Origin: a virus
Virus genome (UHGV): UHGV-2042139
DNA: 10,143 nucleotides
Reading direction: 5' to 3' (one strand)
Both the position numbers and the translations under genes were made by a program. Under the pieces are notes generated by a model that saw only the letters and a program-made list of their open reading frames with translations, was not told where the DNA came from and made no database searches. How positions within the stretch are numbered: the first letter of the stretch is position 1; each line of letters opens with the position of its first letter. Below are positions 1 through 10,143 of this stretch, piece by piece.

Positions 1-711
1 ATGAAAATTAGAAAAGTTGTTTTAACAAAAGCAGAGAAGTATTCTGATGAAATGGGTAATGAGATCCAGTACGAAGGTAGTTGTGACGTCAAACTAATTC
101 AGTTTAGAGGATCTAATAATAAACTTATCATTCATAAAGATGCATCATTAAAATATTTTGAGATATATTTTGACTGCAACAATGGGTATTTTGAAATTGG
201 CCCATGCCATATCGCAAACAAAGGTATACAAGCCCATATAAGAGTGGGTGAGAATTCCTCCATAAAAATAGGCTCTGATTTCACTTGCACTGGTAAAGGT
301 ATGATTTCTGCTGTAGAAAACTCAAGCATAATTATTGGCGATGACTGCATGTTTTCAAGTGGAAATGAAGTTAAAACTGATGACTCCCACCCTATTTTTA
401 GTGTAGTAACAGGTGAACGTATAAATATGCCAAAATCTATTTATATTGGAAGTCATGTCTGGGTTGGCCGCCGAGCGGCAATACTTGGTGGTGCAGAAAT
501 CGAAAGTGGTAGTGTTATTGGCTATGCAGCTGTTGTTAAAGGACACGTCCCAAATAACTCTATTGCAGCAGGAGTTCCAGCAAGAGTAATAAAAAAAGAC
601 ATTGCCTGGGAAAGACCTCATCTCTCCATACATAAACCTTATGTAAAGCCTAATAAGGACTCCATAAAAACCACAAGTGAATATTGGAACCTAACAAAAG
701 AAAAACAATAA
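1..711 (+). CDS. Hexapeptide-repeat (left-handed beta-helix) O-acetyltransferase, maltose/galactoside-acetyltransferase / NeuO-like; likely modifies a surface polysaccharide
   Basis: 236-aa ORF, ATG at 1, TAA at 709-711. Translation carries imperfect hexapeptide repeats and the typical C-terminal block (IYIGSHVWVGRRAAILGGAEIESGSVIGYAAVVKGHVPNNSIAAGVPARVIKK). The start coincides with the window edge, so the RBS and any upstream repeats cannot be seen. Confidence 0.8.
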   Translation: MKIRKVVLTKAEKYSDEMGNEIQYEGSCDVKLIQFRGSNNKLIIHKDASLKYFEIYFDCNNGYFEIGPCHIANKGIQAHIRVGENSSIKIGSDFTCTGKGMISAVENSSIIIGDDCMFSSGNEVKTDDSHPIFSVVTGERINMPKSIYIGSHVWVGRRAAILGGAEIESGSVIGYAAVVKGHVPNNSIAAGVPARVIKKDIAWERPHLSIHKPYVKPNKDSIKTTSEYWNLTKEKQ

Positions 712-745
712 AAACACACCATATATTGAACGACAAGTAAATCAC

Positions 746-790
746 ATGTCACTCCTAGAATGCGATATCTTTAAGGAGTGACATTTATCT
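746..790. terminator. Candidate bidirectional hairpin between the convergent acetyltransferase and tailspike genes
   Basis: Perfect 11-bp inverted repeat ATGTCACTCCT (746-756) / AGGAGTGACAT (774-784) with a 17-nt loop, followed by TTATCT on the + strand and a T-rich stretch on the - strand. The loop is long for a classic intrinsic terminator. Confidence 0.35.
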
Positions 791-866
791 ATAACAAATT
801 ACTAAAACACCCAAAAAACATAGACTTCAATTGGTAATATTGAGACTTAAGGTGTCAGTAAAATAG

Positions 867-3599
867 TTAATTTGCAAGCTTATTTTCCAGTTCTTCAATC
901 CTCTTTATAATATTTTTCTGACGTATACCTAATGCAGCAATCATTAGATACTGTAATTCATCATTTCTGAATGCATAGCGTTCTCCTGCTTCATGCGTAA
1001 TAGTTATAGCCTCACGAACAAGGTTACCTTCATCATCATAAACAGCTGGATCTGTATCTGTATATGCATCCCATCTGTCATAGCAGATCGCTCCGTATTT
1101 AAATGGATCAAGTCCATTCTCTCTGAATATTTCCATTGCCCGTTGCACCGTAAGTCCGGCATGAAGTCTGGCATCAGCTCCCTTATTTTTTACACTATCA
1201 AGCCATTGATAAAAACCAATTTCATCAACAAGAGCTAACCCAACCGCCTGCTCTTTATCGGAAAGAGTTCTGACTTCCGTTTTCTCTGTTGCATCAGATG
1301 TATTTATAGTTGCAGTCCCTGCGTAGACCTGAGAAAAGCGGTTAACGGACCTTCCAAGTGATACCTGGTTATCAGTTGTTGGCCTTAATGTCGTCGTCGC
1401 CCATGTCGATGTAGTATCTTTAGTCGCAGAAAATACTGTTACATTCCCCTGCTTAAGTCTGACGACACCTCCATCTGTAGAGGCAAGTATCAACTCACCA
1501 GCCGCAGATGGACAATCAGCAGCATGGATATCAATATAAGCACCACCCGCAGTATTCCCATCTTTAGAACGGAACTGCATACCTCGAAAGTTTGAGTCGA
1601 ATACTGCTTTCGTACTTACCCATGAATTATTGTCATGTCCGTAATCTGTATCAAACAGGTTAAGGTTATTTCCATAATTCAACTCGAGGGATTTGGTATA
1701 CTCTCCAATGGCTTCGTCAAATATCGCAATAGTAAATGAACCGTGCTCACGGTTAAAGGCGATATCAGTTCCAGCATAATATTGATGCGCGGTTCCGGTA
1801 TACGGATCGGATTCTGCACCATGCACTGGATGGTTGCCAAGAATATCAGACAGGTTTGCTATTCCAAACAGATGCTTATTTCTGCGAGTATAATCACCTG
1901 ATTTATATGTTGCGCCTGAATCCCATTCACCACTTGTCGCTGCAAGCGATGTTTTTAACCAATAAGACCTGTTTGTCGGAAGATTTCCCTTGTTATCACC
2001 AGTAACAATACTTACCCAATTTTTACCACGATGGCTTACAACATCCCCTGCGCTTTTCCATACATCCATAGCACCACAGACAAGTTCATCACCTCTTATT
2101 GCCAGCCCTTCAGGCTCAAAGCTAACCGGAACTCCGATTTTAGAGTCAGAACCATTTAACTGAGTCTCTGTATAAAGTGATGCGGCAAGTGATACAGGAA
2201 ATGAACGTATTAGCGTACCACCCATATCATAAATCTGTACTGTCCTTACGCATCTTGCAGGAACGCCACCCCAAATTGTGTAAATATATCTGCTATCTGA
2301 TGTAATACCCTGAAGTGTTGCACCATACTGACCTTTACCACGGACAAGTGGAACAGGACCATTAATCGGTCTAACTTTCATTGGGTTAGAAGAAGATTCC
2401 ACTTCTTTGCGATCATATACGTATAAAAAGCGGCCAGTCCCAGCGTTTGATGTCGCAATTAATATGACATATCGCCCATCATTAGATACACAAATACTTG
2501 CCCGCTGCGCAAGGTTAATCAGATTATTATCACCCGGCTCACCAAATACTCGGTAATGAGTTATATCTTCAGCAGATGTTGATGCCCCTTTCCATTTTGT
2601 CTTTGAATACCCCTTCCCTCCTAGAGAGGAACCAGTCTCAGCAATTGTTGTTGTAAACAGATATAGTTCACCGTTCTCTATTGTGGCAGAAAGATCTGAA
2701 CCGTGACCAAGAGGCAATGGCTCTGTAAATGTCACAACATAAAGAGTTGAACCATCGCTTGTATAGTGCCACTCACTGATCCTTGTGAGGGTGTCCGTTC
2801 CCCAGTTAGAACCTCCAACCTGTTGAGTGATAAAAACCTTCTCAATACCTTCATGCCTTACACAAGCTATTCCCTGCAATGCATTTTGTGCATTCGCATA
2901 TATAGTTGGCGCATTGATATCATCACCAAAATTCAGGGTCGCAAGTTTTCTTTGTCCAATGGAGAAACTTTGCATCGGCGGATTAACAGAAATGCGAACA
3001 CCATTACTGATTAGAACACCATCACCGGAGAAGCGTGAAATATCTATTTTCGATGCATCAACTATAAACTCACCAGAAGGCACATGAACCAAACCACTAT
3101 TTCCTGCGCTAGATGCGGCGTCAAGAAAAGCCTGTGTTGAATCTCTATTCCCAGAGTCATCCGCCCCCCACCCGCGAACGTCTTTATCATCCCGCCATCG
3201 TGCAATCTGTAATTCAGGGTATTTTTTAGCACCATCAGGATCTTCTAATTGCTGCCGTAACTGATCCGGGTCATACTTCAGCACATTCGGAAAATAGAAC
3301 TGCTGCGTACCATAAGCATCGTACACAGCCATAGAGTGTCCTTTCACAGTAACGAATTTGGCAATCTGTCCGTTATATACAGGATATCCAGCAGCATTGA
3401 TAACGATTGGTTGCGAAACAGGAACGTGAGAACCATCTTCATTCTCTACATAAACCTGAATCTGGTTTTCAGGATTTACAGGGTCAGTGTCAATTTTACC
3501 GATATAAATTTTTCCATTAGCTACGGCTTTAAAAGAACGAGCCATAGTGAAGAGTTGAGAAGGCATCCCAATTACAACATTTGGAGTTATATCAGGCAT
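867..3599 (-). CDS. Phage tailspike protein: P22 gp9-like N-terminal head-binding domain, divergent central receptor-binding/depolymerase body, C-terminal intramolecular-chaperone-like (peptidase S74-like) domain with terminal coiled coil
   Basis: N-terminus [59 protein letters not shown]...VLKYDPDQ matches the P22 tailspike head-binding domain ([43 protein letters not shown]...). C-terminal stretch [34 protein letters not shown]...[11 protein letters not shown]...IEELENKL resembles the autocleaving chaperone domain of endosialidase-type tailspikes, as recalled from memory. Start chosen at the ATG at 3599 (AGGA 8 nt upstream); an alternative ATG lies at 3608, and the ORF-track start at 3752 is an upstream extension with no homology. 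Confidence 0.85.
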
Positions 3600-3916
3600 A
3601 TTAGTCATCCTGTTTGAAAATTTAGATATTGAAGAAAACGGAATGACTGCAGACAAAGATGCAATTGTTTTGAAAAATAATCTTCTATTCACTTTAAAAC
3701 TATGCAACATGAACAAAACAATTATTTTACAACAAGCAAGAATCTTGATCAACAGACATATGCTTTATGCGTTTAATGCGTCACTTAAAAATAACAAGTA
3801 CTACTTTTATTCCTATCGTCCATGATTTTCATTTTCAAATATTATTAAATAACAATTCCTATTTATAATATCTGTCATTTAATCTGCTCCAGATAAAAGG
3901 AATCGCTGCAGCATTG

Positions 3917-3961
3917 CCACAGTGATGCATTATTAATCAAACAAAGAGACCACAGTGGTCT
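3917..3961. promoter_or_regulatory. Candidate operator region: 15-bp perfect palindrome plus an upstream CACAGTG core copy, in the tailspike-mnt intergenic region
   Basis: AGACCACAGTGGTCT at 3947-3961 is a perfect 7+1+7 palindrome about 70 bp upstream of the mnt ATG. A second copy of CCACAGTG lies at 3917-3924, with centres 33 bp apart. Promoter hexamers could not be assigned confidently by eye. Confidence 0.35.
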
Positions 3962-4024
3962 TATTGAGGATGCAACCAGCAGATAATAAGATGCCGATCC
4001 ACTCACAAAAGCGAGGCATCAAGA

Positions 4025-4276
4025 ATGGGAAGAGATGACCCGCAATTTAATCTGCGGCTACCTTACGAATTAAAGGAAAAACTAAAACAGCGAGCCAAAT
4101 CCAATTGCCGCTCTCTTAATTCAGAATTAGTTCAGATAGTGACTGATGCTGTATCAAAGCCATCCAAAATTTCAGGCTATCGAGACGATGCGGAACGAAT
4201 CGCTGATGAGCAGTCCGAACTTGTTAAGAAGATGGTGTTTGATACGCTGAAAGATTTGTACAAAAAACCCACCTGA
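4025..4276 (+). CDS. mnt: Mnt-type ribbon-helix-helix repressor (Arc/MetJ superfamily) with C-terminal tetramerisation coiled coil
   Basis: 83-aa ORF with GAGG 8 nt upstream of the ATG. MGRDDPQFNLRLPYELKEKLKQRAKSNCRSLNSELVQIV...YRDDAERIADEQSELVKKMVFDTLKDLYKKPT aligns along its full length with P22 Mnt as recalled (ARDDPHFNFRMPMEVREKLKFRAEANGRSMNSELLQIV...AERLADEQSELVKKMVFDTLKDLYKKTT). The N-terminal strand reads PQFNLR, as in P22 Arc. Confidence 0.85.
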   Translation: MGRDDPQFNLRLPYELKEKLKQRAKSNCRSLNSELVQIVTDAVSKPSKISGYRDDAERIADEQSELVKKMVFDTLKDLYKKPT

Positions 4277-4291
4277 TGGTGGGTTCCATTT
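4261..4291. terminator. Bidirectional intrinsic terminator shared by the convergent mnt and lipoprotein genes
   Basis: Perfect 8-bp stem AACCCACC (4266-4273) / GGTGGGTT (4278-4285) with loop TGAT. It is flanked by an A-run on the left, giving a U-tract for the minus-strand transcript, and by CCATTTATT on the right. The mnt stop codon TGA sits in the loop. Confidence 0.6.
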
Positions 4292-4292
4292 A

Positions 4293-4712
4293 TTAGTCTT
4301 GCTTTGTGGACGGTATAAGTGATGCATTTGCCTCTTTTGGCTTCAAGGTATACATTCCACCATTAAATGGATCTACAGCAAGCCAACCAATTAACCCACC
4401 AAACACAAGGTTCCCACCAATATACCAACCATTAGCATTGGCTTTGATTGGCAGGGTAACTGGTTCATACCCATCCTTCTCCATAGTGATCTGGTAGCTC
4501 TTTTTGCCAAAATAGCTACCATCTGACTTGGCGAGCGTTACACCTTGTGGGGTCTTACCTTGCGCAACAATCACACCTGACTCATCTTTTACCTTAAAGC
4601 TCGCGCCAGAAGGATTGCTGTTCACTTGCACAAGTTGCGTTTCATCACCAACAATAGTTGCGCACCCAGATAACATGATAACGCCAGCAACGACGCTAAT
4701 AATCCTCTTCAT
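4293..4712 (-). CDS. Lipoprotein with PEGA-like beta domain and C-terminal glycine-zipper segment; function unknown (candidate superinfection-exclusion or envelope protein)
   Basis: Signal peptide with lipobox (MKRIISVVAGVIMLSGC), then a PEGA-like pattern (VQVNSNPSGASFKVKDESGVIVAQGKTPQGVTL...GYEPVTLPIKA) and GGNLVFGGLIGWL. Start taken at the internal ATG at 4712 (lipoprotein signal begins there); the ORF-track start at 4745 would add an acidic 11-residue extension. Ends 7 nt before the terminator hairpin. Confidence 0.7.
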   Translation of the reverse strand: MKRIISVVAGVIMLSGCATIVGDETQLVQVNSNPSGASFKVKDESGVIVAQGKTPQGVTLAKSDGSYFGKKSYQITMEKDGYEPVTLPIKANANGWYIGGNLVFGGLIGWLAVDPFNGGMYTLKPKEANASLIPSTKQD

Positions 4713-4830
4713 ATCAATTTCCATATTTAAAAAAAACGGAAACATCCTAATGACAAATCATTCAAATGTGAAGTAGGCAAAAGATGTTTACTTTTTTCAT
4801 GGTATCCTGCTCAAAACTAAGGAGGTTGGT

Positions 4831-5154
4831 GTGTATACAACAGTTATCGTGATAGCTATCGCACTCATTGTGGTTCAGTACCAACTGGCATCTTTAAAAC
4901 AAAAGATATCTGACCTCAAGACTGAGAACGAAGCACTTAAAAACTCAATAAAAGATGAGAAGAACAAACTATCATTCACTATATCTGATATTGAGCAATC
5001 CATTGAAATTATTGAGAATAATATTAACAGACTAAAAAAAGAAGATATTCATGAAATCAATGACAATATCAAGGATTTGAAATCTTGGCTTAGGAATGTA
5101 GGGCAAATCGCCACATCAACACGAGATAAGCTCAATCCATCCATGGATGATTAA
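4831..5154 (+). CDS. Small membrane-anchored coiled-coil protein (N-terminal transmembrane helix, then heptad-rich domain); function unknown
   Basis: GTG start preceded by a strong SD, AAGGAGGT, at 4819-4826. N-terminal hydrophobic helix TTVIVIAIALIVVQY followed by a Lys/Glu-rich coiled-coil-like sequence. Markedly more AT-rich than its neighbours. Its TAA stop (5152-5154) directly abuts the stop of the convergent ORF (5155-5157). Confidence 0.6.
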   Translation: MYTTVIVIAIALIVVQYQLASLKQKISDLKTENEALKNSIKDEKNKLSFTISDIEQSIEIIENNINRLKKEDIHEINDNIKDLKSWLRNVGQIATSTRDKLNPSMDD

Positions 5155-5910
5155 TTACTCCTGTGCTATTCCGCTTAGCGACGCTACAATGCCAGCCCTC
5201 GCTAAGCGATTGAACTCTTCGTTTCCAACTGCATCACGTATTGCTTTTACGGCGGCTTTATTTGCCATAAATCTGCGTTCCGCCGCCGCTAATGCTTCTT
5301 TACTTCCGCCAGCTCTTACTGCTTTCGTGGCTTCCTGAACTGCTTTCTCTATCGCATATCGACCGCTACGCGTGGTGGCAATTTTAGATACAGCGCCTTT
5401 TAACCCGGCGCCAACTAAAGCACCTGCGGCAGCGCCTGCAATGCCCCCTCCTGCTCCACCAACAATGGCACCTGATGTTGAGTTGGCAATTGCATTTAAC
5501 ACTGTTGATGTGACGTTGGATAAACCGGCATCCAGATCGCGTAGTACATTGGCAGTTCTCCCTGTTCTTTCAATATACTGCTGAGGTTTCACTGCTGCTC
5601 TTGCAAGAGTGCCATATGCATCAGCAATTCTTCCAAGTTCTGAGGAATATCGGCTAATGGCTTTTACATTTTGTGGAGTGAGTATCTCTGCGATATGGTT
5701 AATTCCTGCTGCATCAGCTTTGCCACCACGTACACCATGCGAGATAGCATCTTGCAACATTGATGATATAGCAGGAACACGCTCTGATTCTGGCAGCGCG
5801 CGGATCATAGAATGGAACCCAGCAGGACCATTAAGACCTTTAATAGGATTCGACCCTAAGCGAGATATGCCATTCAAAGGAACTCGCCACAACGCGCTTG
5901 ATGATGCCAT
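5155..5910 (-). CDS. GC-rich Gly/Ala-rich hypothetical protein with glycine-zipper segment; possibly a 3' remnant of a larger virion (ejection-protein-like) gene or an intact membrane-active protein
   Basis: Uninterrupted 251-codon ORF containing GAIVGGAGGGIAGAAAGALVGAGLKGA. No convincing SD before the ATG at 5910. The opposite strand is broken into three same-frame ORFs with low-complexity Pro/Ala translations, consistent with the minus strand being the coding one. GC-rich sequence inflates ORF length, so confidence is moderate. Confidence 0.45.
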   Translation of the reverse strand: MASSSALWRVPLNGISRLGSNPIKGLNGPAGFHSMIRALPESERVPAISSMLQDAISHGVRGGKADAAGINHIAEILTPQNVKAISRYSSELGRIADAYGTLARAAVKPQQYIERTGRTANVLRDLDAGLSNVTSTVLNAIANSTSGAIVGGAGGGIAGAAAGALVGAGLKGAVSKIATTRSGRYAIEKAVQEATKAVRAGGSKEALAAAERRFMANKAAVKAIRDAVGNEEFNRLARAGIVASLSGIAQE

Positions 5911-5959
5911 TCACCAAGCCAAATACGTTTCAGCGATCTGGAAAAAGTTAGCTAAATAA
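5873..5959 (+). pseudogene. Possible 3'-terminal remnant of a DnaQ-like (DEDDh) 3'-5' exonuclease gene
   Basis: Plus-strand translation ends ...FKGTRHNALDDAIHQAKYVSAIWKKLAK, stopping at 5957-5959, 16 nt before the SD/ATG of the next operon gene. HNALDDA resembles the Exo III motif (H-x-A-x-x-D) of DEDDh exonucleases. No motifs I or II upstream. Partly antisense to the first codons of the 5155..5910 ORF. Confidence 0.2.
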
Positions 5960-5975
5960 TCAACAGGAGAAAACC

Positions 5976-6269
5976 ATGCCAGCGCCTCTGTATGGTGCGG
6001 ACGACGCGCGCCGCTGTTCCGGCAATTCCGTATCGGAGGTGCTGGATAAATTCAGAAAAAACTACGACCGGATAATGTCGCTACCGCAGGAAACGAAAGA
6101 GGAAAAGGAATTTCGCCACTGTATATGGCTTGCAGAGAAAGAAGAACGCGAGCGAATTTACCAGACATCAATCCAACCATTCCGCAAAGCCACATATACC
6201 CACTTCCCTGAAATTGACCCGCGCCTGCGTAATTACCGCTCACGTTATGGCGCTATCAGTAATGACTGA
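5976..6269 (+). CDS. Hypothetical protein, first gene of an early-region-type small-gene operon
   Basis: 97-aa ORF, ATG at 5976 with SD AGGAGA 5 nt upstream. No family recognised from the translation. Confidence 0.6.
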
Positions 6270-6279
6270 GGAATTTACC

Positions 6280-6444
6280 ATGAGAGGACTTGCATACAAT
6301 CCCGGCATTCTTCCGGCAGAAATGATTATTCGCCAACGCGTAAAGCCAATGCCATCGAGAGAGGAATTGCTTAAGAGAAATTCTTTTCCATCAGTAAATC
6401 AAAACAAATATCTGAATGCGATGTGGCGGAGTGGGAAGAAATGA
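6280..6444 (+). CDS. Small hypothetical protein (54 aa)
   Basis: ATG at 6280 with SD GAGGA 7 nt upstream, immediately after the stop of the preceding gene. The longer ORF-track version from 6130 overlaps the upstream gene out of frame and is rejected. Confidence 0.5.
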
Positions 6445-6962
6445 AACAAATGTCACTAATTGAGATGGATGGATTTCTGAAAGGTAAATGCATCCCACGA
6501 GATTTAAAGGTTAACGAAACAAACGCTGAATATCTTGTCCGTAAGTTCGGTGAACTTGAATCAAAACTCAACGAGCAGCGTGAGTATTACGAGGGCGTTA
6601 TCTCGGATGGGAGTAAGCGTATTGCTGAACTGGAGAAAAGCGAAGAGCAACTCATCAACGAGCTTGACCATGCTGAGTATGCTTTAGCTGATATGTACTT
6701 TGCAGCAACCGGGGATAGGTCTGAGTGGAGTAACTGTTTCAGTTTTTCAGATGCTGTCGATGCCGTGGTTGACAGAATTGCTGATTTAGAAGCTAAACAG
6801 CCATCGCCAGTAGTGCCGGAAGGACTGGTTAAAGCAGTGCGCTTCTATGAGCAGGTAAAACGTGAGAATCCGCCAGCCGAAACCGGAGCATGGAAAGACG
6901 CTGTTTACTGGGTGCTCAAAGAGGCTTGTCAGGTTGTAAACACTGGCATCAAAGGAGACTGA
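6441..6962 (+). CDS. Hypothetical protein with central coiled-coil region (173 aa)
   Basis: ATG at 6441 overlaps the upstream stop (ATGA at 6441-6444), indicating translational coupling. The ORF-track start at 6423 is a GTG. No family recognised. Confidence 0.6.
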
Positions 6963-6963
6963 T

Positions 6964-7173
6964 ATGGCTATTGCCGCAAGTTACACCATGCATCTCTATT
7001 GTGACTGCCGTCAGTGCACGGAAGGTGTATATCCAGTGCCAGACTTCGGTGAGTATATCGGTACGTCATGGGCTGGCTGTGCAAAAGAGGCGCGCAAGGA
7101 TGGCTGGCGAATAAGCAAAGACAAAACGCGTGCTTTTGCGCCCGGGCATAAAGTTTTGAGGATTAACAAATGA
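6964..7173 (+). CDS. Small Cys-containing hypothetical protein (69 aa), possible metal-binding
   Basis: ATG at 6964, one nucleotide after the upstream stop, with SD GGAG 6 nt upstream. Contains CDCRQC plus a further Cys. Confidence 0.55.
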   Translation: MAIAASYTMHLYCDCRQCTEGVYPVPDFGEYIGTSWAGCAKEARKDGWRISKDKTRAFAPGHKVLRINK

Positions 7174-7904
7174 CCACTATAACCAAAGAGCGACTGCTGA
7201 CAATCAAGCAGTGGCGCGAAACATACGGACCGGGTAGCAACGTTGTACTGCCAGCAGAAGAAGCGGAAGAACTGGCACGGATTGCTCTGGCATCGCTGGA
7301 AGCAAAACCAATAGGTGCATTCCACATTGCAGAACAGCAAGTTGACGGCACAAGTGACTACCTCAAGGATGGAGAATGGCCTATTGATAATGGAATTATT
7401 GAGGTCTACGCCGCTCCCCCCGTTCCAGTAGTACCGGAAGAAAAACCAATGCCTAACGCTCTAAGCATGCTTGAAAGAGAGATCACACAACTGATTGGTG
7501 ATGCGCAGGAAGCCACTGTTACTGGCTATGAGTTAATCGCTGAAGCTTGGCGTTTGATGGATGGACAAGACCCTAAAACCAGCGATTGGCATAGCAAGGC
7601 TTCGAAGTATTTAAATTCCAATATTGTAGAAAAAGTTGATGATGACCGTATTGATGCAATTAAGGCTGTTTTGCGTAGACTGGCTGGCAACTCTCCGGTA
7701 ACTCCGGATGGTTGGATAAGCTGTAGTGAGCGAATGCCAGATGATGGTCAGCACGTAATTATTTTATGTGATGGCGCATTCGTTCTTTATGCGCAATATC
7801 GAGACGGTGAGTTTTTTGATGTTGTCCGCAATGGTGAGGAGTTCTTCGAAACGCAGAGCCGCAATGTAACCCACTGGATGCCGCTACCAGAACCGCCGCT
7901 CTGA
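7170..7904 (+). CDS. Prophage early-region protein with DUF551-like C-terminal domain
   Basis: ATG at 7170 overlaps the upstream stop (ATGA), with SD GAGGA 8 nt upstream. The C-terminus DGWISCSERMPDDGQHVIILCDG...VTHWMPLPEPP matches the DUF551 signature as I recall it. Confidence 0.7.
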   Translation: MTTITKERLLTIKQWRETYGPGSNVVLPAEEAEELARIALASLEAKPIGAFHIAEQQVDGTSDYLKDGEWPIDNGIIEVYAAPPVPVVPEEKPMPNALSMLEREITQLIGDAQEATVTGYELIAEAWRLMDGQDPKTSDWHSKASKYLNSNIVEKVDDDRIDAIKAVLRRLAGNSPVTPDGWISCSERMPDDGQHVIILCDGAFVLYAQYRDGEFFDVVRNGEEFFETQSRNVTHWMPLPEPPL

Positions 7905-7933
7905 TAGCGAATCTTATACATATCTTTTACATC

Positions 7934-7947
7934 AACAATATATTGTT
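7934..7947. promoter_or_regulatory. 14-bp perfect AT-rich palindrome, candidate operator upstream of the zinc-ribbon gene
   Basis: AACAATATATTGTT at 7934-7947, in the 96-bp gap between the DUF551 gene and the zinc-ribbon gene, 53 bp upstream of the ATG at 8001. Confidence 0.3.
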
Positions 7948-8000
7948 AATTTCCAATCAATGTTACGTTGTCATCTCACTCATGCTTTGGAGGTAGTGAT

Positions 8001-8180
8001 ATGTCTTGTCCAAAATGCGGTTCTGGAAATATTGCAAAAGAAAAAACAAGGCGTGGATGGTCTGGAGATTATGTGTGCAGTGATTGCGGATACAACAACT
8101 CTAAAGACGCATTTGGAATGCGCGGTAAAAACGAGTTTAGTAAAAATAATAAAGAACGCGGAAGCAACGAAAAAAGCTAA
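8001..8180 (+). CDS. Small zinc-ribbon protein (CxxC-x19-CxxC), 59 aa
   Basis: ATG at 8001 with SD GGAGG 7 nt upstream. MSCPKCGSGNIAKEKTRRGWSGDYVCSDCGYNN, then a basic tail. The ORF-track start at 7968 is a TTG. Confidence 0.55.
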   Translation: MSCPKCGSGNIAKEKTRRGWSGDYVCSDCGYNNSKDAFGMRGKNEFSKNNKERGSNEKS

Positions 8181-8243
8181 ATTATTTATTCATATATGAA
8201 AACAATGTAACCAATATTCGAATTGAAGAACTGAAAGAACACT

Positions 8244-8268
8244 AAGCCGCCTGATGGCGGTTTTTTAT
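8244..8268 (+). terminator. Rho-independent terminator ending the small-gene operon
   Basis: GC-rich stem AAGCCGCC (8244-8251) / GGCGGTTT (8256-8263) with one G-U pair, loop TGAT, then a run of T residues. Confidence 0.6.
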
Positions 8269-8280
8269 TGGAGACAAGAA

Positions 8281-8625
8281 ATGTCAGATTTGGCTATGAA
8301 GATTTTGAAATGGCAAACGACTGGCGATGTCGGCATCAGTAGCGCAACTCTTGCCTCAATCGCATGTGGACTGAAAAAGAATATCTATGGTCATCACTTC
8401 GGCGCTCCACATGACGCAGCCGATTTCCGACGATGCGTTGCACTTGTTGAGCAGATTCCAGAAATCAGAGATTCATTCGACAAGGTTGCAAAGCGCGTTC
8501 CGGCATTCAAAGGCATCCTCAACGAATGGGATTCTCTCGTTGCTCTGTTGAAGTCTGAAATGAAGATACACGGAAACAAAGCACCAGAGACTTACAGAAG
8601 AATCAGAGAACTACGCAAGGACTAA
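8281..8625 (+). CDS. Hypothetical protein (114 aa)
   Basis: ATG at 8281 with SD GGAGA 6 nt upstream, just downstream of the terminator. The ORF-track start at 8254 lies inside the hairpin and is rejected. No family recognised. Confidence 0.55.
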   Translation: MSDLAMKILKWQTTGDVGISSATLASIACGLKKNIYGHHFGAPHDAADFRRCVALVEQIPEIRDSFDKVAKRVPAFKGILNEWDSLVALLKSEMKIHGNKAPETYRRIRELRKD

Positions 8626-8746
8626 CTATGGAATCATACAGCCTCACACTCGATGAGGCCTGACAGTTTCTCAAGATCGCCAGATCTACCGCAACCGACA
8701 ATAACCGCCACTGAACGGTTTATTTCTTTATGGAGAAACCATACAA

Positions 8747-8977
8747 ATGACAATCAATATTCAGCCGATTCTAATAAACCGCGAGCGTGTTCAGGAGATG
8801 CTTGGTGGTATCTCCAGAACTACTTTTTACCGGAAGCGTAAACAGTGGGAGCAATCAGGGACACCATTCCCTCGGGAAGTGGAAGAAATCCACCCACCGA
8901 AAGGCGGCGCCCTCTTTCGCTACAAGGAAGTTATTCAGTTTTGCAAAGATAAAGGATTGATTTCCGAACACTCTTGA
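8747..8977 (+). CDS. AlpA/excisionase-family helix-turn-helix regulator (prophage regulatory protein)
   Basis: 76-aa translation ...INRERVQEMLGGISRTTFYRKRKQ...GTPFPREV...FRYKEVIQFCKDKGL fits the AlpA/Xis-type pattern (compare E. coli AlpA ...LRLPAVIQKTGMARATIYDWL...FPKK...W...EIDEWL). Its 3' end overlaps the integrase 3' end by 43 nt in convergent orientation. Confidence 0.7.
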   Translation: MTINIQPILINRERVQEMLGGISRTTFYRKRKQWEQSGTPFPREVEEIHPPKGGALFRYKEVIQFCKDKGLISEHS

Positions 8978-10143
8978 ATTTTCTTAGCCCATAATTCTGC
9001 TGCGTCCTGCTGCTCGGGGATGTAGTCATACTGGTCATAAACAGCCAGCATCCCCGTGAGCTTATGCCCGAGAATTTTCTCCGAAACATGAGGTGCTACT
9101 CCAAGTTCAGCCATTTTTGTTTTGCACGTTCTGCGCAGATCGTGCAATGACCAGTGCTCGCCCCCCATAACATCTTCTACCTGTTCTGCAATAGAAATTA
9201 GGGTGCTGGCAGACATTGGGCGATTTTCCTGTAACTTAGCCGGAGGAAATACGATTGACAGATCAGGGTATAGATCAAATACCTGCTGCAAATAATCTGC
9301 TGCGAGTTTTGAAATACCGCGAACAAATCGCTTACGCGTTTTTGAGTTCTCTTTCGGTATAGTCCATTCTCTAGACTTCAGATCAAAATCAGTCTTCTTA
9401 GCCAACCGCAATTCAACACCACGACAACCAGTTAACGCAACAATTCGAATAAACATTTTGTTTTGCCACGACATTTTCGTTTTGTCGATGGCATTCCAGA
9501 ATGCGCCTATCTCAACATCGTTAAGAAAACGTTCGCCATTATTAGGTCTACTGCCGATATCATTAATCTCAAGAAGCATCAGTGCATTTGATGTTATGCG
9601 TTTTCTGCGTAACGCATAGCGGATCACTTGCTTCATCTTCACCAGTACATTTCCCGCCTGTACGGGTGACCCACCTTTTGTTATGCGAATGAATATTTGC
9701 TCCCACTCTACAGGACTCATTTCATCTGCAATCAGCTTACCGTAATTGTCGGTGATGTGAAGTTTCAGCATCCGCTTCCAGTATTCGTACTTCACCATCT
9801 CTTTTACTGAAGGAGTATCAAACCACTCGTCAACTAGGGTACTGATGCTTGGGGAACTTGATGCAATATCTTTGGCTTTCTTCCTTTGCATGGCTGGGTC
9901 TTTACCCTTCTCCAACCACCCTTTACACTCTTCCAATGCATCGCGAGCTTCCTTAAGCGACATCTTCCCGTACGTTCCGAGCTTTAACCTGGCGGGTTTT
10001 CCATTGAAACGATAGCGGTATTGAAAGGTGATAAGTCCCTTCGGGCTGATCCTGACAGAAAGTCCGCCTCCGTCAGCTATCTCCTCAGGTCCCTCATATG
10101 CTTTTCCGGATATACGTCGCAGCTTTGTATCGTTGAGTGCCAT
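8935..10143 (-). CDS. int: Tyrosine site-specific integrase, P4-like family, with N-terminal arm-binding (DUF4102-type) domain
   Basis: 402-aa ORF. N-terminus LNDTKLRRISGKAYEGPEEIADGGGLSVRISPKGLITFQYRYRFNGKPARLKLGTY...SLKEARDA is typical of P4-type integrases. C-terminal catalytic region contains HDLRRT...LGH...AVYDQY. The start codon is the final triplet of the window, so the upstream att site and any tRNA are outside it. Confidence 0.9.
   Translation of the reverse strand: MALNDTKLRRISGKAYEGPEEIADGGGLSVRISPKGLITFQYRYRFNGKPARLKLGTYGKMSLKEARDALEECKGWLEKGKDPAMQRKKAKDIASSSPSISTLVDEWFDTPSVKEMVKYEYWKRMLKLHITDNYGKLIADEMSPVEWEQIFIRITKGGSPVQAGNVLVKMKQVIRYALRRKRITSNALMLLEINDIGSRPNNGERFLNDVEIGAFWNAIDKTKMSWQNKMFIRIVALTGCRGVELRLAKKTDFDLKSREWTIPKENSKTRKRFVRGISKLAADYLQQVFDLYPDLSIVFPPAKLQENRPMSASTLISIAEQVEDVMGGEHWSLHDLRRTCKTKMAELGVAPHVSEKILGHKLTGMLAVYDQYDYIPEQQDAAELWAKKIQECSEINPLSLQN

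Follow-up and report, generated by a model that had tools for sequence, protein, structure and literature searches.

In the distal part of the early-left operon, the region that separates the recombination genes from xis is named ea in P22 and exo-xis in lambda and in Shiga toxin (Stx) phages. In the direction of transcription from the early-left promoter (PL), the P22 order is erf, abc1, abc2, orf56, eaE, orf45, eaF, eaD, eaI, eaA and, after a 96-bp gap, eaG, eaC, xis and int; the order in HK620 is equivalent (hkaJ to hkaD, xis, int). Abc2 is a RecBCD modulator that has been characterised biochemically and structurally; the P22 protein binds RecC at its Chi-recognition domains, recruits PpiB via Pro68, and has been proposed to steer RecBCD towards recombination of the phage (PMC9836394). 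Ea22 proteins, whose expression is very early, favour lysogeny and have varying C-terminal domains, DUF551 being among them; a long central coiled coil, tetramer formation and a pro-lysogenic phenotype mark the family (PMC7093339, PMC10834534). Here, we analyse a block of six small genes (genes 1 to 6, positions 5976-8180) in a stretch of 10,143 nucleotides from UHGV virus genome UHGV-2042139, the whole of which is called the window below. The block had originally been predicted to be an operon of early-region type, without assigned functions and without a promoter of its own.

Gene layout and setting of the six-gene block

The six genes are very probably the accessory genes at the distal end of a PL operon, that of a P22-like (Lederbergvirus/lambdoid mosaic) prophage, stranded without its promoter in a defective remnant. 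They are assigned to the PL operon, and not to an operon of their own, because they are embedded in this way in E4, P22, HK620 and other intact relatives. At the same site of its chromosome, Escherichia coli E4 has a prophage that appears to be intact, in which cI, N, ral, Rad52, ssb and a gene for a 182-aa 3'-5' exonuclease precede abc2, the DUF2737 gene, genes 3 and 4 and a variant of gene 5, followed by Eag, a hypothetical gene, a xis-like helix-turn-helix (HTH) gene and a convergent int. Window positions 5841-7189 are 99.0% identical to the E4 prophage (contig L005, 6999-8347), the match beginning inside the exonuclease coding sequence, and positions 7680-10143 are 99.7% identical; the central part of gene 5 (7190-7679) differs. 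In E4, P22, HK620, PhiR57_1 and Min27, the block reads in the direction of PL, with the recombination module on one side and xis-int on the other.

An open reading frame (ORF) list and a reading of the sequence place all six genes on the plus strand (Table 1). The packing described in the original prediction was matched at every coordinate, with ATGA stop-start overlaps between genes 2 and 3 (6441-6444) and between genes 4 and 5 (7170-7173), spacers of 10 nt between genes 1 and 2 and of 1 nt between genes 3 and 4, and a 96-bp gap before gene 6. Each start codon is preceded, at 6-9 nt, by a purine-rich Shine-Dalgarno site. The six ORFs are genes and not chance ORFs, because homologues of each product are numerous, because the ratio of non-synonymous to synonymous changes (pN/pS) relative to phage homologues points to coding constraint (0.19-0.29 for gene 1, 0-0.27 for gene 2, 0.27 for gene 3 and 0.05-0.29 for gene 4, with a looser 0.57-0.83 for gene 6), and because HK620, P22, E. 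coli E4 and PhiR57_1 have the same 4-nt overlaps, 10-nt spacer and 96-bp gap. Every product is present in public databases in identical or nearly identical form.

A consensus scan of the plus strand from 4704 to 7915 returned no sigma-70-like promoter site, in agreement with the original prediction, and the promoter-like sites in the region numbered five against 8.1 expected. Since no promoter is recognisable, the block is most likely silent, or expressed by read-through only. The absence is explained by a mapped deletion: the upstream region that in E4 holds cI, N, ral, Rad52, ssb and the exonuclease gene is lost, as had been supposed, at a junction between positions 5842 and 5843. The observation that gave rise to the original prediction is therefore confirmed, and its interpretation stands in part. 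The accessory set of a P22-like or lambdoid phage is borne out by homologues and gene order in P22, HK620 and E4; the term operon was overstated, as intact relatives show a segment of a long PL transcript running on to xis and int, and the view of the block as devoid of assigned functions did not hold.

In the proposed mechanism, PL transcription in the intact phage, rendered terminator-resistant by N, would proceed through ral, the recombination genes, abc2 and the small genes into xis, and the close packing with ATGA overlaps would let ribosomes move from gene to gene. Abc2 would bind RecC and convert RecBCD, a nuclease that degrades the phage, into an aid to phage recombination, as shown for P22, and the Ea22-type protein would bias the lysis-lysogeny decision, a phenotype shown for lambda and Stx phages. 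The Orf56/DUF2737, CxCxxC, EaA/DUF551 and EaG proteins are presumed to be small host-factor-binding proteins that are dispensable in the laboratory. Internal deletions in the window would have taken cI, PL, N, the recombination genes and, just upstream, the exonuclease gene except for 39 codons, and genes 1 to 6 would still be intact because the loss is recent.

Table 1. Features of the window, with predicted identities.
Feature	Coordinates	Strand	Length	Shine-Dalgarno site	Description
Acyltransferase gene	1-711				Hexapeptide-repeat protein
Tailspike gene	867-3752				P22-type tailspike
Small gene	4293-4745	-			At immI/sieA position
Small gene	4831-5154	+			At immI/sieA position
Truncated gp16-type gene	5155-5842	-			3' part of P22-gp16-family DNA-transfer (ejection) gene, left of junction
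Exonuclease remnant	5843-5959	+			Last 39 codons and stop of 3'-5' exonuclease gene, right of junction
Gene 1	5976 (ATG) to 6267-6269 (TGA)	+	97 aa	AGGAG, 5965-5969	abc2, anti-RecBCD protein 2
Gene 2	6280 (ATG) to 6442-6444 (TGA)	+	54 aa	GAGGAA, 6268-6273	DUF2737 protein; counterpart of P22 Orf56 and HK620 HkaI
Gene 3	6441-6962 (TGA 6960-6962)	+	173 aa	GGAG, 6428-6431	Short mosaic Ea22-type protein
Gene 4	6964-7173 (ATG 6964)	+	69 aa	AAGGAG, 6952-6957	CxCxxC...H protein, unnamed family (phrog_926)
Gene 5	7170-7904	+	244 aa	GAGGA, 7158-7162	EaA-type protein with C-terminal DUF551
Spacer	7905-8000	+	96 bp		Carries ribosome-binding site of gene 6
Gene 6	8001-8180 (ATG 8001)	+	59 aa	GGAGG, 7989-7993	EaG (Eag) four-Cys zinc-ribbon protein
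orf55 remnant and terminator	8207-8270	+			3' end of lambda orf55, then hairpin
Small gene	8281-8625		114 aa		phrog_1229
HTH gene	8747-8977	+	76 aa		xis/AlpA-like
Integrase gene	8935-10143	-			Convergent tyrosine integrase

Products of the six genes

The product of gene 1 matches PF11043 over its entire length (residues 1-97 to positions 1-97 of 97) with 207.5 bits against a cut-off of 25 (E 2.5e-62), and phrog_656 with an E-value of 2.5e-54. It also aligns from residue 1 to 97 with residues 1-97 of chain A of the cryo-electron microscopy structure 8B1T (E 1e-56). The identity is 92% to P22 Abc2 and 95% to HK620 HkaJ, and Pro68, the residue of P22 Abc2 that lies in the PpiB active site, is kept (QP68F). 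Gene 1 is accordingly annotated as Abc2, the anti-RecBCD protein of P22, and the 92% identity suggests that it would bind RecC and alter the response of RecBCD to Chi. Because gene 1 is named in this way, the claim that none of the six genes has an assigned function is incorrect; gene 3, in addition, falls within the Ea22 group, for which a pro-lysogenic phenotype has been published (PMC7093339).

Gene 2 encodes a full-length DUF2737 protein (PF10930, 107.7 bits, cut-off 25, E 2.6e-31), which is 100% identical to HK620 HkaI and 75% identical to P22 Orf56. abc2 and the DUF2737 gene are contiguous in 209 of 238 matching phage records, and abc2 itself is present in 225 records; the pairing is kept in approximately 93% of the abc2-bearing phage genomes. 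The 10-nt spacer between them is of identical length in P22, HK620 and the window. Because of this constant spacer and the contiguity with abc2, which extend from the Salmonella phage P22 to E. coli phages, Orf56/DUF2737 could be an unrecognised partner in the hijack of RecBCD by Abc2.

The Ea22-type protein that gene 3 appears to encode is short and a mosaic of three pieces. Over residues 1-43 it shares 98% identity with the HkaH N-terminus of HK620, residues 41-68 are 89% identical to residues 77-104 of lambda Ea22 (28 aa), and residues 38-173 are 86% identical (136 aa) to proteins annotated as Ea22 in PhiR57_1 and ev017. The coiled-coil segment, which is central in the characterised Ea22 proteins and makes up more than half of them, is kept only as a short piece.

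Gene 4 encodes a small protein in which the cysteine cluster C13-x-C15-x-x-C18 and His62 are invariant among relatives. It is present in 427 phage records, with 90% identity to p08 of the Stx phage Min27 and 97% to the PhiR57_1 protein, both encoded in exo-xis regions, PhiR57_1 being a lambda-like phage, and with relatives of 38-48% identity in virulent Ackermannviridae and Klebsiella phages; P22, HK620 and lambda contain no counterpart. An alignment of 45 members retrieved no Pfam family, and its search of PDB sequences gave only a marginal match to ZF-HD (E 0.037); a profile search among 1.84 billion representatives brought the family to 397 clusters without a link to any named family. Three candidate relatives were discarded: the sole large match is a spurious one, to a metalloproteinase of 697 aa that has Cys/Trp repeats, YdaE of Rac, described as a zinc-binding protein, shows no resemblance, and HkaF of HK620 is unrelated in sequence. 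The family lacks a fold match as well as a Pfam entry, yet it is common to temperate lambdoid and Stx phages and to virulent Ackermannviridae and Klebsiella phages, and is under strong purifying selection, as would be expected of a small zinc-binding protein that inhibits some conserved target in enterobacteria. The 1,349-bp block 5841-7189 differs from the E4 prophage by 13 mismatches, 11 of which lie inside the 210 bp of this gene (nine synonymous, two non-synonymous), and this concentration suggests that gene 4 was replaced singly, by an allele swap through recombination.

The DUF551, cysteine-cluster and zinc-ribbon features noticed in genes 5, 4 and 6, respectively, are all real. Residues 181-243 of the gene 5 product match DUF551 (PF04448) with 77.4 bits against a cut-off of 22, and an identical protein exists at NCBI (P0048) among at least 8000 relatives. 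Identity to P22 EaA amounts to 39% in the N-terminus and to 48% in the C-terminal DUF551. The predicted structure is confident only for the five-strand barrel of DUF551. A Foldseek search of the PDB returned nothing at E-values of 0.001 or below, with Tudor-like matches at probabilities under 0.5, and the fold search of a viral library returned other DUF551 proteins only.

The gene 6 product, a zinc ribbon with four cysteines (CPKC...CSDC), is identical to an NCBI entry named Eag protein on 201 contigs, and is 83% identical to P22 EaG and 85% identical to HK620 HkaD. Its assignment as Lar is not supported by the profiles, as PF14354 scored 21.1 bits against a cut-off of 28.6 and TIGR03655 17.1 against 39.6; matches to zinc-ribbon profiles likewise stayed under threshold. 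Eleven of 13 Eag-family members match PF14354 with E-values below 0.01, the best of which, 2.9e-5, equals the value for the unrelated HVO_2753 zinc finger. A comparison of the gene 6 family with RalR/Lar of Rac by hhalign gave a probability of 18% (E 0.0013, 28% identity over 53 columns), and PHROG places RalR in phrog_599 and EaG in phrog_2945. RalR/Lar of Rac, which alleviates restriction and has also been called a type I toxin, is likewise a small Cys-rich zinc ribbon whose gene lies close to xis in the last part of the early-left operon, but its C-terminal W-N-K/R motif is lacking in Eag. The filing of gene 6 as Lar is rejected on these comparisons.

The 96-bp spacer before eaG is equal in length and approximately 95% identical in P22, HK620, E4 and the window, and is thus strongly conserved while EaG itself evolves loosely (pN/pS 0.6-0.8). 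Neither of two candidate control elements in the spacer was accepted, as P22 and HK620 do not conserve a weak promoter-like match (7915-7944), and a perfect 14-bp palindrome (7934-7947), considered as an operator, is specific to the window allele and likewise not conserved in the two phages. Downstream of gene 6, the orf55 remnant and terminator region is 96.9% identical to lambda 29103-29166 and encodes TNIRIEELKEH followed by a stop, the C-terminus of lambda Orf55; the terminator is a stem-loop (8244-8263) of eight pairs, five of them G-C, followed by a T-run. Some Eag homologues in the databases are read-through fusions onto this orf55 remnant. The 114-aa protein encoded right after the terminator belongs to a family of unknown function without a Pfam entry, is conserved in phage Huey, and is under purifying selection (pN/pS 0.11).

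Profile and structure searches thus named gene 1 and yielded no function for genes 2 to 6. NCBIfam had no match for genes 1 to 5, and scans of the whole window with Rfam and for tRNAs had none either. The PADLOC defence-system models gave only coiled-coil and zinc-ribbon noise at E-values of 2e-4 or worse. Searches of the literature for DUF2737 and DUF551, for the ea genes and for accessory-gene screens turned up no function assigned to genes 2, 4, 5 and 6. For these four genes, the enrichment for anti-defence functions that had been put forward remains a supposition, as profile, fold and defence-library searches gave no function. It is possible, although we consider it rather doubtful, that among these four uncharacterised products there is at least one undiscovered factor for host takeover or anti-defence, and genes 2 and 4 would be the best candidates.

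Deletion junctions and the surrounding prophage remnant

At the junction upstream of the block, identity to E. coli EC24 stops at position 5842 and identity to E4 starts at position 5841. To its left, the gp16-type gene, complete in EC24, is truncated, and the same fragment on a contig that is 99.99% identical to the window (L012) matches PF26808 (Phage_P22_gp16). To its right, residues 79-111 of ORF 5609-5959 match the tail of PF16473. The window junction is interpreted as a secondary deletion of 500 bp with a 2-bp microhomology, on top of a larger deletion, because sister remnants (L013, L014 and L016) are identical on both sides yet hold 500 additional bases (L013, 6172-6671) and with them a complete exonuclease gene. 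The earlier, large deletion would have removed PL, N, cI and the morphogenetic genes. The window junction was not found in 5,426 complete E. coli genomes.

One P22-like prophage is seen at the locus thrS-yniD/espL1 in several stages of decay, namely the intact form in E4, the remnants with the full exonuclease gene, and the window form, shorter by 500 bp. In EC24, Rad52 and ssb are kept and the segment from the exonuclease gene through gene 4 is gone. Sister contigs L013, L014 and L017 lack an 868-bp stretch (8702-9569), with loss of the xis-like HTH gene and of the 3' part of the integrase gene, of which an Arm-binding fragment of 222 aa remains; the lineage has here undergone a further, independent deletion. 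The locus offers a clean natural series of one prophage decaying stepwise, with an intact form, two nested deletions and alternative deletions, and is useful for studying the formation of remnants.

The window corresponds to a segment of the E. coli chromosome between thrS and espL1/yniD. Positions 1-5842 and 7235-10143 are 100% and 99.97% identical to EC24, respectively, and the entire 10.1-kb remnant, junction included, occurs in two gut-metagenome contigs with 99.98-99.99% identity and like flanks. The gene order is acyltransferase, P22-type tailspike, Arc/Mnt repressor, two small membrane/lipoprotein genes, the truncated gp16-family gene, genes 1 to 6, two more small genes and the tyrosine integrase. 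Its gene content, in which the Arc/Mnt repressor is listed, includes no repressor, replication, lysis or head genes. Judged by this content, the window is a 10-kb defective P22-like prophage extending from thrS to yniD.

The acyltransferase gene adjoins the tailspike gene at the thrS-side end of the prophage, and is likely an O-antigen-modifying conversion gene retained in the remnant. The two small genes at the immI/sieA position encode a predicted lipoprotein, whose signal peptide ends in LSGC, and a second protein that has a transmembrane helix at its N-terminus and a coiled coil; they are possible superinfection-exclusion-type morons. At the other end, the integrase gene converges with the early genes and overlaps the HTH gene by 43 nt, an arrangement that contrasts with the co-directional xis-int of P22, HK620 and lambda.

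Alternative explanations and known systems

Several observations weigh against a stranded and silent segment of the PL operon. Read-through from the co-directional small gene of the immI/sieA position (4831-5154) could express the block, as no terminator-like hairpin directly follows its stop, the only match being a weak one of five pairs at 5365-5379, and a non-consensus promoter could also drive it. The gene 3 product scored 22.2 bits with the Pfam family Ead_Ea22 (PF13935), below the cut-off of 27, over residues 33-65 only and against the end of the profile, and its coiled coil is far shorter than in the characterised Ea22 proteins. For genes 2, 4, 5 and 6, the role of host-factor-binding accessory proteins is only inferred, because their functions are established in no phage. 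Finally, several independent samples carry the block at 100% identity while the modules next to it have been deleted, which may be read as retention; this is countered by EC24, which has lost abc2 to gene 4. Taken further, such retention would mean that the cassette has been domesticated for a benefit to the host, for instance RecBCD modulation or interference with incoming phages, and is expressed from a new or cryptic promoter. The intactness of all six ORFs across remnants with differing deletions on both sides, the possible read-through and the absence of a repressor gene from the window would fit this explanation. However, the remnants are near-clonal (99.98-100% identical), and their intactness is therefore uninformative on selection; EC24 has the same remnant without abc2 and genes 2 to 4, a promoter-like site was not found upstream, and the defence-system models gave no match. 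We regard domestication as improbable.

The tight coupling of the genes, the terminator directly downstream of gene 6 and the frequent abc2-DUF2737 pairing would also suit an autonomous six-gene operon with its own start and stop that encodes an undiscovered multi-component anti-defence system. This is very unlikely, as the gene set beyond abc2-DUF2737 is freely reshuffled among phages, genes 3 and 5 are themselves mosaics, and all intact relatives embed the genes in a PL operon that extends from the recombination genes to xis. Among phage records and complete E. coli genomes, none covers at least 80% of the block collinearly except E4 (approximately 80%). Least credible of all is that the block is decaying, non-functional DNA whose ORFs are no longer genes, even though the prophage is defective, PL is gone, and PGAP calls the E4 equivalents of genes 3 and 5 partial pseudogenes. 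Frameshifts and premature stops are absent, the six products are full length with respect to phage homologues, and genes 1 to 4 and 6 are 99-100% identical to the intact prophage. As the ORFs are continuous, the partial labels are put down to their mosaic make-up; the E4 ORF that PGAP splits into two partial pseudogenes is identical to gene 3.

The six-gene block described here is a known kind of region with known protein families, among them one that is well characterised, in a recently truncated prophage remnant, and its annotation is routine prophage annotation. The residual novelty lies in the functions of Orf56/DUF2737 and of the CxCxxC family only, and the abc2-DUF2737 pair and the orphan CxCxxC family represent cheap and well-defined candidates for anti-defence and host-takeover screens. 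RecBCD modulators of the Abc2 type may trigger abortive systems that guard RecBCD; Gam triggers OLD, and Abc2 is not the trigger identified in a 2026 preprint on OLD. The stranded abc2 copy matters for such systems only if it is expressed.

A comparison with the described systems reveals differences in gene content within a shared plan. The overlaps and spacers of hkaJ-hkaD in HK620 match those of the window, but HK620 has HkaG, a full Ea22-like protein, HkaF, which is not related to gene 4, and a shorter DUF551 protein. With the exo-xis region found in lambda and in Stx phages (orf60a, orf63, orf61, orf73, ea22, ea8.5, orf55), the block shares the position between recombination genes and xis, the logic of early PL expression, the 28-aa Ea22 segment in gene 3, and the orf55 3' remnant with its terminator after gene 6. 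By contrast, homologues of orf60a, orf63, orf61 and ea8.5 were not found in the block, and the place that Gam holds in lambda as RecBCD modulator is held here by Abc2. The ea region of P22 differs in having eaE, eaF, eaD and eaI where the block has the Ea22-type mosaic gene 3 and the CxCxxC gene 4, in the presence of erf, arf and abc1 upstream, where E4, the intact relative of the window, has Rad52, ssb and the 3'-5' exonuclease gene, and in a co-directional instead of a convergent integrase. The order of abc2, the Orf56 homologue after a 10-nt spacer, the EaA-type DUF551 protein, the 96-bp spacer and EaG is common to P22 and the window.

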